Below are positions 1 through 29,709 of a DNA stretch of 64,000 nt, in pieces (position 1 is the stretch's first letter; every line of letters begins with the position of its first letter). Both the position numbers and the translations under genes were made by a program. Below the pieces are notes generated by a model. That model ran no database searches. It saw only the letters and a program-made list of their open reading frames with translations, and was not told where the DNA came from. The stretch covers positions 768,001-832,000 of the forward strand of contig CM000435.1 in assembly GCA_000165345.1 (NCBI GenBank), read 5' to 3'.

Positions 1-1920
1 AGCAATATTATAGATAAAAGTTCTTCATCAAAAAGAGTAGCTAATTCATAATCAATATTTTTGTTACTTAATTCTTTAAGCTTGATTAACTCTTCTAAGC
101 TACCCAATCTATTTATGACCCTGTCTAAATCTAGACTCATTGTATTATCAAAATAAAAGCTTGATAAAATATCTATTAATACAATATCTTTACCTGAAAC
201 AATATTTACAATACCGTCTAAACATTTTTTATTTTTTATTGAAAAATCGTCATCGTAAAATAATAACTCCCTTGGTTCAATAAAATTAATACAATTGTTT
301 GGGTGAATGCTTTCAAAGCTAGAATGCGATTCAAAACTATCTAGGTTATTTATGATTCTCTTTTGTAACGAAATAGGAGTGGACATAAGTAAGCTTTCCA
401 TCGCAAGAATTACTTGGAAAAGATCTAAAAACAACGATTTTTTTTCTCCAATAAATTCATCAAATGAGCTCTGTTGAACTGACATGAAAGAATCTGTACT
501 TTCTGTATTATTATTTGATATCAAGAATGGATGCAATACACTGATGATGCCAATACGCACATTTAAATCCAAATCTAACTTAAATCTGTCTGTACATATT
601 AAGTAAATATCATTTTTTAGTTTATGCTCCAACGACTTAAGAAATACAATTAAAAACGTAGATAACTGCAAAGAACTTCGAATTTTAGGGAAAAATGGAG
701 GCTTATAATCTATATCAGAACTTGAAAATATTAAATTTAACCAAAAAAGTAATACATTCTCAATTTCAATAAAGAGAGAGCTTCCACAAGTAATGAACAC
801 ATTACAAGACCAAATATTTGATCCGATACTTTTTTCAATTTCATCAAAAATATTAGGAATGTGAAAATAACCAAATGAGTGAAATTCATTGCAAATAATT
901 AATATTTGTTCAATTGCATTTATTTTTACGCTGGGGTTTTGATATATTGGCTTAAATTCATTATTTTCAAAATATTCTGGAACACCAACTTTTAAATTAT
1001 TATGAGAAATATTATTAAATACGCTTATTTGCATATTTTCAGTAATATCTTCGCAATTTAATTTTTCAACTTCGCTTAACTGGTCTGAAATGAAATAATT
1101 GTGTAAAATCCCAAAGATTGTATTTTCATTACTTACTTCAATAATTTCGTGATCCTTCCAATTTTGTTCTGATTTGCAAACATTATTTCTATTCAATAAA
1201 TCTTTACAACTATTAAATAAATTTGGAAGAATTAAAAATTTTGCCCATCTATTAATTATTTCAATTGATAAAATGATATGGTAGTTTATTGGAATTGGAT
1301 TTTTTTTAAGAAAAGCTAAACAACCAATAATTTCATGTATTCCTTGTAGGTAGTTGAAGTTGAGATATTCACATACAGTGATTGTAACAAAAACAAGTCT
1401 ATCGACAAAACTAAGTTTTGAAATGTATGGAAATGAATCACAGCTCAGGAGTGTAAGCATTTCATTATAATCTTTACTTGAAGCATTGAAATTAAAATAT
1501 TGTTTAGCATGTTCTAAAAAACTGTCAATACCATAGAAATCTTTCGGTATTTTTGGAAAAGATAGTTTTTTCTCATGAATATTCGGCCTAAATCTCTCGA
1601 AGTCGTATCTAATTATTTTATTGTTTGGATTTTTTTTTTCTAGCTCAATAATTATGGTTTTGATGCAGGCATGTCCGTTTTCTTTATTCAAAATATTATT
1701 TGAAATAAATTGATTGATTGATTGGATTTTTTCTAATCTAACTTTAAATAAGAAGCACCATATTCTATAGTCAAACCAGAAATCTTCAATAGAAATGCCA
1801 ATTATATTATTAATTTTTTCAGAATTAGATTCATCACTTGAATCAATTAAATGCCTTGCTTCTTCAGACTTAATTTTTTTGTTTTCAAAGTTGGGGGAAG
1901 TTTCATTTTGTGTATACATA
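1..1920 (-). CDS. TBC-domain Rab GTPase-activating protein, N-terminal part only; ORF runs off the window start
   Basis: ATG at 1920..1918. My manual minus-strand translation stayed open to position 1 (MYTQNETSPNFENKKIKSEEARHL...). It contains the TBC arginine-finger motif IxxDxxR (IIRYDFERF) and the glutamine-finger YxQ motif (NYLQGIHEI). It is absent from the supplied ORF track, presumably because no stop lies inside the window. Confidence 0.55.
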
Positions 1921-25623: not shown

Positions 25624-27994
25624 CTAAGGCTTATTTTTATAAAAATTTCTAAGCTTCAAAATCACATTAGTCTCAAAATTCCAATCAATTAATTGTTCAT
25701 TAGGAATATTCTCAGCTATCCATTTTGGTAGCATTTGCTTTACTTCAGAAGAATTATATCGATGATCAACCAACAAAATAGATGAATAATCATTTCTATG
25801 TCTTATTGCGCGACCAATACATTGGTTGACTGTTTTCATACACAATACTTTTCTATAAATGTTTTCATACCTATTATAATCGCAACTACCTCTGTTAAAG
25901 TACCTCTCCTTACTAAAAAGCATTTCAGTCTTTTGTGGAAATGGGAGCGAAACTATTATAAGGCATCTACAAAGTTCATCTGAAAAATTTACTCCCTCCG
26001 AAAGAGTTCCATTTAAAACAGCAAAAAGTATTGCTCCGTATTCCTTGTTATTTACAATATGGTCTCTATATGACATAAGTAATTCCTTTCCACTATTTGA
26101 ATCCTGTTTTTTTTCCTTGAAAATTTTTTTGTATTTTAATATTGTTTGGTAAAAGTCCTTAGAACTTTTATCCGAAACAAGGAACTTGAAAAAGACATCG
26201 AGGAATAAGTGGGATGTGAAGAAAACGCATACCCCGTTAGGTATTTCTGAGGAAAGTACTGATAATAGCTCGCAAAGATTTAATAGCTGTTTTATGTCGG
26301 TTCGAAATTCGTATCTTAGATCAATTACACTATTATCAATAAACTTTGGAATGATCAAACACATTAAGTTATTATTTGAAATATGGTGACTCGCAGAGAA
26401 CTTTACAATATTCATAGGCTCTAACGGTAATAATAATGGACTAAACTCTGTCAAAGGTTCCAATGTTCCTCCAACAAGCATAGTAGATTTTGTGTTGGCA
26501 AATACATCATTAAAACTTGTTTGCACATTAATAGGAACAACTGTAATAGTAGCCTGTTTGCCATCTGAATGGTTAAAGCTTGTTTCAATAATAACTTTGT
26601 CAAATTCTTTATCAGAACGAATTAAAGCAACAATAAAATCCTTTAACAAAAACAAAGAGTTTGAATGTGAAATTATTTCCTCAAACTTTCTGAATTTAAT
26701 TGGGAAATCTCTTCCAAATTTAATAATAATATTTTTAATTTTACTACACAATTCATTTTCAACAATAAAATTAATAATTTTGTTCAAATTAAATGTATTG
26801 ATTTGGTAAAAATTTAAGAATTCTAGTGGTCCAAGAAAGATTTGATTACTTTTCACTTCGTTTTCACCATATTTGCGCTTTTTTGAACTGATTATTTTAC
26901 TTGTAGATGAATGTATACACTTGACTAGCCTAGCTAGCTGTTTAAAAGTTGCAACGAAATTATCTCCAGGAACAGAATTATCTAATGAAATTAGTTTTTC
27001 AAATGAATAACTCAGTATTTGGCAAGAAAGTAAAGTAAGGCTGACTCTATTATTTGATTCTAATGCGTTAACTAAATTATGCGCTTCATCAATAAAGCAA
27101 AGGGTTTTTTTCTTGTCAAGAAAGATTCCAAATGATTCTCGAGTAGTTTTGTTGAAAATAATACTGTAAGGTGCAAGAATTATGTCTGAATACTTACTTG
27201 CTTCTTTAGCTGCGTAATACGGACATGCCTATAAACAATATTTAGTATGAAAATAATTTAAATAAACTTACAATTAAATTTTTACCTTCTTTACGTAATT
27301 CTTCAATGTTCATTGGCTCAATTAAACACTTTTTCGCAAGTTCCATGTAGTTTTCTTTATAGAGGCATTTATTTTCTTTTTTTTCTTCGCTGGAATACAT
27401 TTTACAAACTTCATTAATAAGATGGTTTGGATAGTTTTTTACTTCATTATTTAAACAAAGATGTGACCTGCTTGCAAGCGATACAATTGAATAAATGTTA
27501 GAAATGTGAGTGTTATCTTTATTTGCCATTTTTATTTTGTTAAACTCCTCAACGAATTGCATTAATTGCGTATGAGTTCTACTAGAGATGATTATCTGAT
27601 AGTAACTAGAAAAAAAATCTAAGTTTTCGCTAGATATTAATTCTTTTACATTTTTTTTTGTCGAAGTTAAAATATCTTTGTTGATAGATTTTAAAAAATT
27701 AATTTTTTCATTAATGTATTGCTCGCATGAATTTTCTCTACTTTTCCTGATTGCATTAGCGACCCATAAAGGCATTGGCTTGCTTTCTCGGGCAAAAGAT
27801 ACTGGGCCATAAATTTGTTGGCTTATCCAACTCAGTGATGAGCATAAAATACTTAAAGTTTTACCTGTGCCCGTTGGAGATTCAAAAATTCCAATTCCAC
27901 CATCTATTTCATATAGCTTCCAAGCAGCTGAACAAAATTCGGATTGTATTTCATATGGTTCATTCGGGAATCCAAATCTTTTTGAATAACACAT
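25624..27994 (-). CDS. DDX11/Chl1-type DEAH-box (Rad3/XPD family) DNA helicase; two exons (27994..27272 and 27228..25624) split by a 43-nt intron at 27229..27271
   Basis: N-terminus FPNEPYEIQ…GIGIFESPTGTGKTLSIL is the Rad3-family motif I. Exon 1 ends …ELRKEGKNLI|GTAAGT. Exon 2 begins ACPYYAAKEA… and continues LCFIDEAHNLVNA (the DEAH box). The C-terminal helicase domain carries QCIGRAIRHRNDYSSILLVD. Confidence 0.75.
27229..27271 (-). other. 43-nt spliceosomal intron of the DDX11-like helicase gene
   Basis: Donor GTAAGT and acceptor TTGTTTATAG. The splice joins …GKNLI to ACPYY…, recreating the conserved CPYY motif of Rad3-family helicases. Confidence 0.7.
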
Positions 27995-29217
27995 TGTAAA
28001 TACTTCTGTACCACTTTATCTTAATGAGTGTGGTCAACTAGTATTTAAGTAGGCCATTTCCAGTACTTTAGTAACAAATTTCTGTATTATGAGTTATTCT
28101 CCTAAGTGAAAATAAATTAAAATGATTTAAAAATATATAAAACACCCATAATATTTGTAGTAATAAATTATTTATGTTAAAAAATATACTGTTAGTAAAA
28201 CTTATTTTAAATTTACCCGTTTTTCTCATGCAATGCCTGAGTAAACTTTTTAATAAGCTAAGCAGCGCTTAAATATGAAATATTAGAATTACCTAATTAT
28301 TTATCAATATTTTAATTAAAGATATTCACCACTTTTTGGTTTGGTCTTATATAATTACTTTTATTTCAAATTGGTTGAAAAAATTTGTCAAGCCAAAAAA
28401 AAATTGTTAATGAACCGTAAATCATCTGAAAGAAATCATTTTAAATTATTTGCATTTATAAGAGCTTAATATATTAATCAATTCATCATTAAGTTTTGTT
28501 TCTTAGTAACATGCTTTAATTTATATTTTTCAGAATATTAAAGGATAAAAAATGGTTTTAATTAAAATTAAATAGACCTAGCTGTTGTATAAATCATTTG
28601 GATTGAACAACATTAAAATGGTTTTTGTTAATTCCTAATCAAAAGAATAACTTTTATTAGTAATTTTCATTGAATAGATTGATACTATATTTTTTAAATT
28701 ATAGTGTATCTGAAAATAATATTGCATTAATTTCAAATTCTCTGAGTTTGCGATGAGAAACAATAGTAGTACCCGAATAAGTTCTCTTTTTTTTCTTAAT
28801 TAAAATATTTCAATTTAAACATTAATTTTTAATAACTTGTTATAAATATTTTTAAAGATTACAACATTTTGTGATTTTCAGAGTTAAAAAACTCATCCCA
28901 GATAAATATGACGAAATAGCTTGGGGACTTGACTTGAAAAAAATTAATATCTTTAAGATGTTCTAAATCTAACTCCCAACAAAATCCCAATTAGAACAAA
29001 TTTGAAATGGAATTTCTAATCAATTAACACCAAGATCAATTAGAATGTGTTACTATAATTGAATATTTTAGGATCAACAGAATCGGACAATAAATTTAAA
29101 AAAAAAAATGAAGTTACTCTATTTTTGTATTACTCAACTAATTTCTAAGATATATGAATTGTTATCTAACGAGTGCTAATAAAGCATTTTGAATACAATT
29201 ATTAAAACACAAATATT

Positions 29218-29591
29218 TTATGGGCTACAATATGGGTTCTCTATTACTTCACTTCCGTCACTTGGACAAATCATTAAAACCTAGAAAAAATTTTATTGAA
29301 AAAAAAATTAAATTCAAACTTACAGAAGCACCCCTTATTACCAATAGACCCAACCTCCGTTTTTGATCTGGGCACGAAAGAAATTCATCTTTATCTATTC
29401 GAACTAATAACTGATTAAACAAATAATATTAGTAACCTACCAAACATATATTCAACTGTTTCATCCAAAACAAGGTTCGTAACCGCATCAAATCCACGTA
29501 ATATTCCAATAACTTCTCTTCCGCCACATAATTTTACTTTTATTTCTTTGTTATTAAACTTGTTCAACCCTAATATTGATTTTGATGACAT
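29218..29591 (-). CDS. LSM7: LSm7 (U6 snRNA-associated Sm-like protein); three exons (29591..29441, 29394..29324, 29280..29218)
   Basis: Exon 1: [50 protein letters not shown] (Sm1 motif). Exon 2: [24 protein letters not shown] (Sm2 motif RxLGLVVxRG). Exon 3: [20 protein letters not shown], matching the human LSm7 C-terminus …SVVLICPQDGMEAIPNPF. Introns are 29395..29440 (GTAGGT…AATAG) and 29281..29323 (GTAAGT…TTCTAG). Only exon 1 appears in the ORF track, fused to nonsense. Confidence 0.75.
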
Positions 29592-29709
29592 TTCTATATT
29601 AAATGACAAATAATATTTAGCGAGCGGTACCAATTTTTATAATTTAATATGAAATGAATATTAAGTTTCCAGGTTTTGAAGTTTGTATCTGAATTGCTTG
29701 GCAAGAAAA

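Follow-up and report, generated by a model that had tools for sequence, protein, structure and literature searches.

The segment at positions 29,218 to 29,591 of the analysed window, a 64,000-nt stretch of DNA, is very probably the Cryptosporidium parvum chromosome 7 gene for LSm7, a 94-amino acid protein of the Sm fold, its coding sequence predicted to be interrupted by two introns of 46 and 43 nt. The predicted features are as follows.

29441..29591, minus strand: exon 1, 151 nt, from the ATG at 29591, coding for residues 1-50 and the first base of codon 51; N-terminal helix and Sm1 motif
29395..29440, minus strand: intron 1, 46 nt, phase 1, GTAGGT...GAATAG, GTAGGTTACTAATATTATTTGTTTAATCAGTTATTAGTTCGAATAG, 24% GC
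29324..29394, minus strand: exon 2, 71 nt, variable loop and Sm2 motif, 41% GC
29281..29323, minus strand: intron 2, 43 nt, phase 0, GTAAGT...TTCTAG, GTAAGTTTGAATTTAATTTTTTTTTCAATAAAATTTTTTCTAG, 14% GC
29218..29280, minus strand: exon 3, 63 nt, the last three being the TAA stop (29220..29218); end of the Sm2 motif and LSm7-type C-terminal tail

Joining the three exons gives a spliced coding sequence of 285 nt, a single open frame whose translation is 94 amino acids long; the preliminary description had arrived at 95 by including the stop. The Sm1 motif lies within exon 1 and the Sm2 motif straddles exons 2 and 3, with the variable loop between the two motifs. GC content ranges from 30 to 41% in the exons, as against 24% and 14% in the introns and 31% in the whole window. 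A 5' site resembling GTAAGT and a T-rich stretch ahead of the AG, both marks of U2-type GT-AG introns, are present, intron 2 reading GTAAGT...TTTTTTCTAG. Intron 1 contains stop codons in all three frames, and in C. parvum the frame that reads through from exon 1 stops inside it. The 72-amino acid ORF that had been reported at this locus is indeed present in the bacterial-style ORF list; it begins at a TTG start and corresponds to exon 1 running on into intron 1.

The three-exon model among alternative splice models

Starting from the ATG at 29591, every splice model containing up to two GT..AG introns of 20-200 nt was enumerated. The 344 candidate introns led to 5,060 distinct products, each of which was scored against the human LSm7 segment. 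The three-exon model obtained the top score among the 5,060 products (245), followed by a runner-up at 232; the 99th percentile stood at 187, the unspliced product at 139 and the median at 94. Chance is excluded as an explanation of the three-exon LSm7 model by this ranking of all GT..AG models.

The intron 2 junction is common to all top-scoring models. The acceptor of intron 1 lies in the variable loop that separates Sm1 from Sm2 and for that reason is weakly constrained by homology, and the models ranked second and third (scores of 232 and 228) use the in-frame acceptors 29404 and 29389, which add three amino acids and remove two, respectively. The AG at 29404 would give a protein of 97 amino acids with VRI inserted and the AG at 29389 one of 92, and the length of the loop at this point does differ among LSm7 proteins, with a one-residue gap in Schizosaccharomyces pombe and two residues fewer in C. 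xiaoi. The gapless alignment to human LSm7 is nevertheless obtained with the 29395 model only.

Conservation of exons, introns and reading frame in Cryptosporidium

Alignment of the orthologous loci of C. hominis, C. tyzzeri, C. meleagridis, C. ubiquitum, C. felis and C. xiaoi with that of C. parvum showed that, in each of the seven species, the deposited protein is obtained with a single pair of GT..AG introns and no other, and that the intron positions are identical. The splice sites that the preliminary description had read from the letters (29440 and 29395 for intron 1, 29323 and 29281 for intron 2) are thus borne out: they produce an in-frame coding sequence, they define the best-scoring model and they occupy the same positions in seven species. 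Exon 1 measures 151 nt in 7/7 species, which fixes intron 1 in phase 1 throughout. In all seven, a conserved GA[ST] codon directly precedes intron 2.

The introns themselves drift in length. Intron 1 is 46, 47 or 76 nt long depending on the species, with its GT conserved in all of them, and intron 2 is 42, 43, 44, 45 or 46 nt long, its GTAAGT being invariant in eight sequences. These differences among species are not multiples of three. The 5' splice sites across species read GTAGGT, GTATGT or GTAAGT, and outside C. parvum they are GTAAGT or GTATGT; intron GC content ranges from 13 to 27%. Intron 2 of C. hominis carries a 2-nt insertion in its poly-T, with an identical encoded protein. The largest departure is that of C. 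xiaoi (LSm7 locus at L006, 3001..3400), in which intron 1 measures 76 nt versus 46 and exon 2 has two codons fewer.

In the more distant species the exons are more conserved than the interiors of the introns, with exon and intron identities of 0.87 versus 0.71 for C. ubiquitum, 0.74 versus 0.62 for C. felis and 0.72 versus 0.48 for C. xiaoi; this contrast is uninformative for C. hominis, C. tyzzeri and C. meleagridis, since both identities are similar there. In the spliced frame, substitutions at codon positions 1, 2 and 3 number 10/3/46 in exon 1, 11/9/27 in exon 2 and 8/6/27 in exon 3. From these counts all three LSm7 exons are under purifying selection, and the third-position bias found in each of them identifies the proposed frame as the one in which exons 2 and 3 are translated. 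A count of the differences between C. parvum and C. hominis gave seven synonymous and zero non-synonymous ones, in agreement with the values given for the CHUDEA7_3520/cgd7_3520 pair in a published supplementary table (identity 1, dN 0, dS 0.115; Isaza et al. 2015, PMC4637869).

The comparison also bears on the choice of acceptor in intron 1. That the gene is LSm7 but employs another 3' splice site for this intron, as its constitutive acceptor or in a minor isoform, appears very unlikely. The AG at 29404 is missing from C. ubiquitum, which has TTCAT, and from C. felis; that at 29389 is also missing from C. felis. By contrast, the AG at 29395 is kept wherever the intron 1 of a species aligns, and the acceptor equivalent to it is used by 7/7 deposited models. 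Homology and conservation would therefore place the exact acceptor of intron 1 at 29395. We likewise consider it very doubtful that a meaningful share of transcripts is spliced to acceptor 29404 (or 29389) or retains intron 1. If this were so, a 97-amino acid loop variant or a 58-amino acid product limited to Sm1 could regulate the assembly of the LSm ring. To our knowledge, reports of alternative splicing in C. parvum concern only three genes.

The LSm7 of C. meleagridis is also 97 amino acids long, and use of acceptor 29404 in this species was considered as the origin of its length. This model was rejected, the three extra residues being C-terminal; the protein is longer because its TAA stop has changed to CAA (L008, at about 1373..1382).

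Shorter versions of the gene are found in public collections. The 58-amino acid C. hominis UdeA01 model CUV07338.1 is an unspliced truncation of LSm7 that is older than the spliced models and belongs to one cluster with the 94-amino acid sequence, and assemblies in ENA and Logan contain ORF calls of 58-77 amino acids in which exon 1 is read on into intron 1. Some of the truncated records have spurious upstream starts of the TTG type. Taken at face value, the NCBI model and the ENA and Logan calls, which are the output of prokaryote-style gene callers, would mean that only an unspliced, Sm1-only product of 58 amino acids is encoded and that the similarity downstream is a decaying relic. This is extremely improbable. 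Exons 2 and 3 display purifying selection in the spliced frame, and splice sites and phases are kept in seven species while intron lengths drift. An Sm domain deprived of Sm2 (strands 4-5) could not form a ring. Moreover, the unspliced tail GRLLILFV is not conserved, the C. ubiquitum-like and other ORF calls ending in GKLLPTR and GKSINYWQ.

Deposited records and neighbouring genes

The preliminary description had presented the gene as hidden in a region apparently free of ORFs. An identical protein of 94 amino acids is in fact already deposited and named LSm7. For C. parvum it is listed in NCBI and UniRef, as KAL3127144.1 and KAL5367667.1 (CPHLJ_7g3520 being the locus tag of one of the two) and as UniProt A0A7S7LEJ5_CRYPV, and the same sequence is recorded for C. 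hominis as 'putative U6 snRNA-associated Sm-like protein LSm7' (OLQ18015.1 / PPA64025.1). The 'Sm-like protein Lsm7' of C. tyzzeri (TRY50424.1), also of 94 amino acids, is 99% identical. Orthologues from C. tyzzeri, C. meleagridis and C. ubiquitum, of 94-97 amino acids, bear LSm7 or LSM-domain names, and a search of a large protein collection returned orthologues of 92-94 amino acids in C. felis and C. xiaoi. Comparison of the window with the C. parvum sequence CP141124.1 (GCA_035232765.1) gave 0 mismatches in 6,374 nt; positions 29100..29700 of the window fall at roughly 838.3-838.8 kb of that record. Matching numbering equates the CPHLJ_7g3520 locus with the cgd7_3520 position.

Since the LSm7 protein is already in public databases, the finding is an ordinary one. 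Among the matches listed by a literature search on Cryptosporidium and LSm7, none was a paper on this gene by its title; the identifier cgd7_3520 was not found in main texts, its only occurrence being in the dN/dS table that supplements Isaza et al. (2015).

It had further been proposed that ORF-only annotation of this genome misses small multi-exon genes. The statement is correct, but it is already published. RNA-seq raised the proportion of intron-bearing genes in C. parvum from 4.3% to 10.8%, with 451 additional introns and 74 additional genes (Isaza et al. 2015, PMC4637869), and a later study made 1,926 changes to the C. parvum annotation, the introns of which are stated to be 100% supported by RNA-seq (Baptista et al. 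2022, PMC8744675). The truncation of small multi-exon genes by prokaryote-style ORF tracks is exemplified here by the 58-77-amino acid models of ENA and Logan and by the C. hominis UdeA01 record. The correct multi-exon model of a tiny gene can be recovered by a reader from raw sequence. For this ordinary housekeeping gene the value of the result is that of quality control, with little significance beyond.

All the species share one gene order: a 515-amino acid protein, PP2C, LSm7 and a DEAD_2 helicase. On the LSm7 strand, the helicase is the gene that comes next.

25624..27994, minus strand: DEAD_2/Helicase_C_2 helicase, with its start at 27994
27271..27229, minus strand: helicase intron, 43 nt, GTAAGT...TACTAAAT...TTTATAG, GTAAGTTTATTTAAATTATTTTCATACTAAATATTGTTTATAG

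Removal of this intron fuses ORFs of 250 and 410 amino acids into a product of 775 amino acids, exactly the length of the deposited one. The locus had been called otherwise intron-poor; because the adjacent helicase has a 43-nt intron of its own, this view cannot be kept. Three short introns, two in LSm7 and one in the helicase, are found in the space of about 2.4 kb.

The LSm7 stop is separated from the helicase start by a region of 1,223 nt (27995..29217) with a GC content of 22% and without a deposited gene. Intergenic regions of C. parvum are reported to average about 550-590 nt, so that this gap is approximately twice as long. An Rfam search gave no match anywhere in the window, the gap included. 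The region may correspond to UTRs or to an unannotated non-coding transcript. The presence of another, hidden gene in the gap was considered and dropped. A multi-exon gene of 137 amino acids is deposited for the corresponding region of C. felis (L005, 4450..5135, minus strand of the locus), but has no counterpart in 27995..29217 by tblastx (E >= 0.5). The first reading frame of this C. felis gene looks like an ORF that runs antisense to the 5' end of the helicase (27867..27989 of the window, plus strand), and the C. felis helicase model is correspondingly short, at 661 amino acids versus 775. The 137-amino acid gene is probably an annotation artefact.

On the other side, the ATG of LSm7 (29591, minus strand) and that of PP2C (29710, plus strand) are arranged head to head, 118 nt apart (29592..29709). 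With this spacing, the 5' UTRs of the two genes, and any promoter, must all be accommodated in this very short stretch.

Relationship to LSm7 and SmG of other eukaryotes

BLASTP and HMMER searches (Pfam LSM) had been put forward as checks of the spliced product; a Pfam search and a comparison with PDB sequences both agree with the proposed identity. The product matches the Pfam LSM family (PF01423) over the whole profile (positions 3-66 of 66) with an E-value of 1.3e-20 and 73.3 bits for a cut-off of 23.4, whereas the unspliced 58-amino acid product reaches 48.7 bits and covers positions 3-45 only, the part of the profile that exon 1 matches by itself. In a comparison with all PDB chain sequences, LSm7 proteins make up the six best distinct matches, at E-values from 1e-26 to 1e-17 (human, 1e-26; S. 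pombe, about 2e-18; Saccharomyces cerevisiae, about 1e-17). The next matches are SmG at 1e-11 and LSm3 at 1e-07, other LSm paralogues being at 1e-07 or worse.

The alignment to human LSm7 pairs residues 3-92 of the query with residues 9-98 of the chain with no gap, and spans both splice junctions. Sm1, Sm2 and the C-terminus that had been described as collinear with LSm7 all align gaplessly to the human protein, Sm1 and Sm2 each to the matching human segment, and exon 3 is collinear with human VVLICPQDGMEAIPNPF. The LSm7-type tail that follows Sm2 (ICPxDGxExIxNPF) is present and aligns to LICPQDGMEAIPNPF in human and to IAPMDGSEEIPNPF in S. pombe.

The LSm7 pre-mRNA would be transcribed from the minus strand, and spliceosomal removal of the 46-nt and 43-nt introns at these exact junctions, which are predicted from homology, conservation and third-party annotation, would join the three exons. 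LSm2-8 rings are associated with the 3' end of U6 snRNA, and LSm1-7 rings with mRNA decay. By homology, the product would take the LSm7 position in a heptameric LSm2-8 ring binding the U6 snRNA 3' end in the nucleus, and would also enter an LSm1-7 ring involved in cytoplasmic mRNA decay; both ring assembly and RNA binding are suggested by the resemblance to LSm7 proteins of other organisms.

The small nuclear ribonucleoprotein G (SmG), a paralogue from the Sm ring, shares the Sm fold, and its core domain aligns to the Cryptosporidium protein with an E-value of about 1e-11; SmG is without the LSm7 C-terminal tail and its score is far lower. That the protein is a canonical SmG rather than LSm7 is hardly credible: SmG does form the next-best group of matches, but the six best are LSm7 and surpass it by 6 to 15 orders of magnitude in E-value, and SmG alignments end at query residues 78-81 whereas those to LSm7 reach residue 92 through the ICPxDGxExIxNP[FY] tail.

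The closest reference outside the genus is human LSm7 (PDB 3jcr chain 7 and 20 other spliceosome or tri-snRNP entries), to which the likeness extends over 90 residues (E 1e-26). Compared with the 103-amino acid human protein, the Cryptosporidium LSm7 is without about six N-terminal and about five C-terminal residues, and the sequence of its loop between Sm1 and Sm2 is divergent. The deposited Cryptosporidium LSm7 models describe the same gene, agree in both introns and in the neighbouring genes (PP2C and the DEAD_2 helicase), and show no difference from the model presented here.
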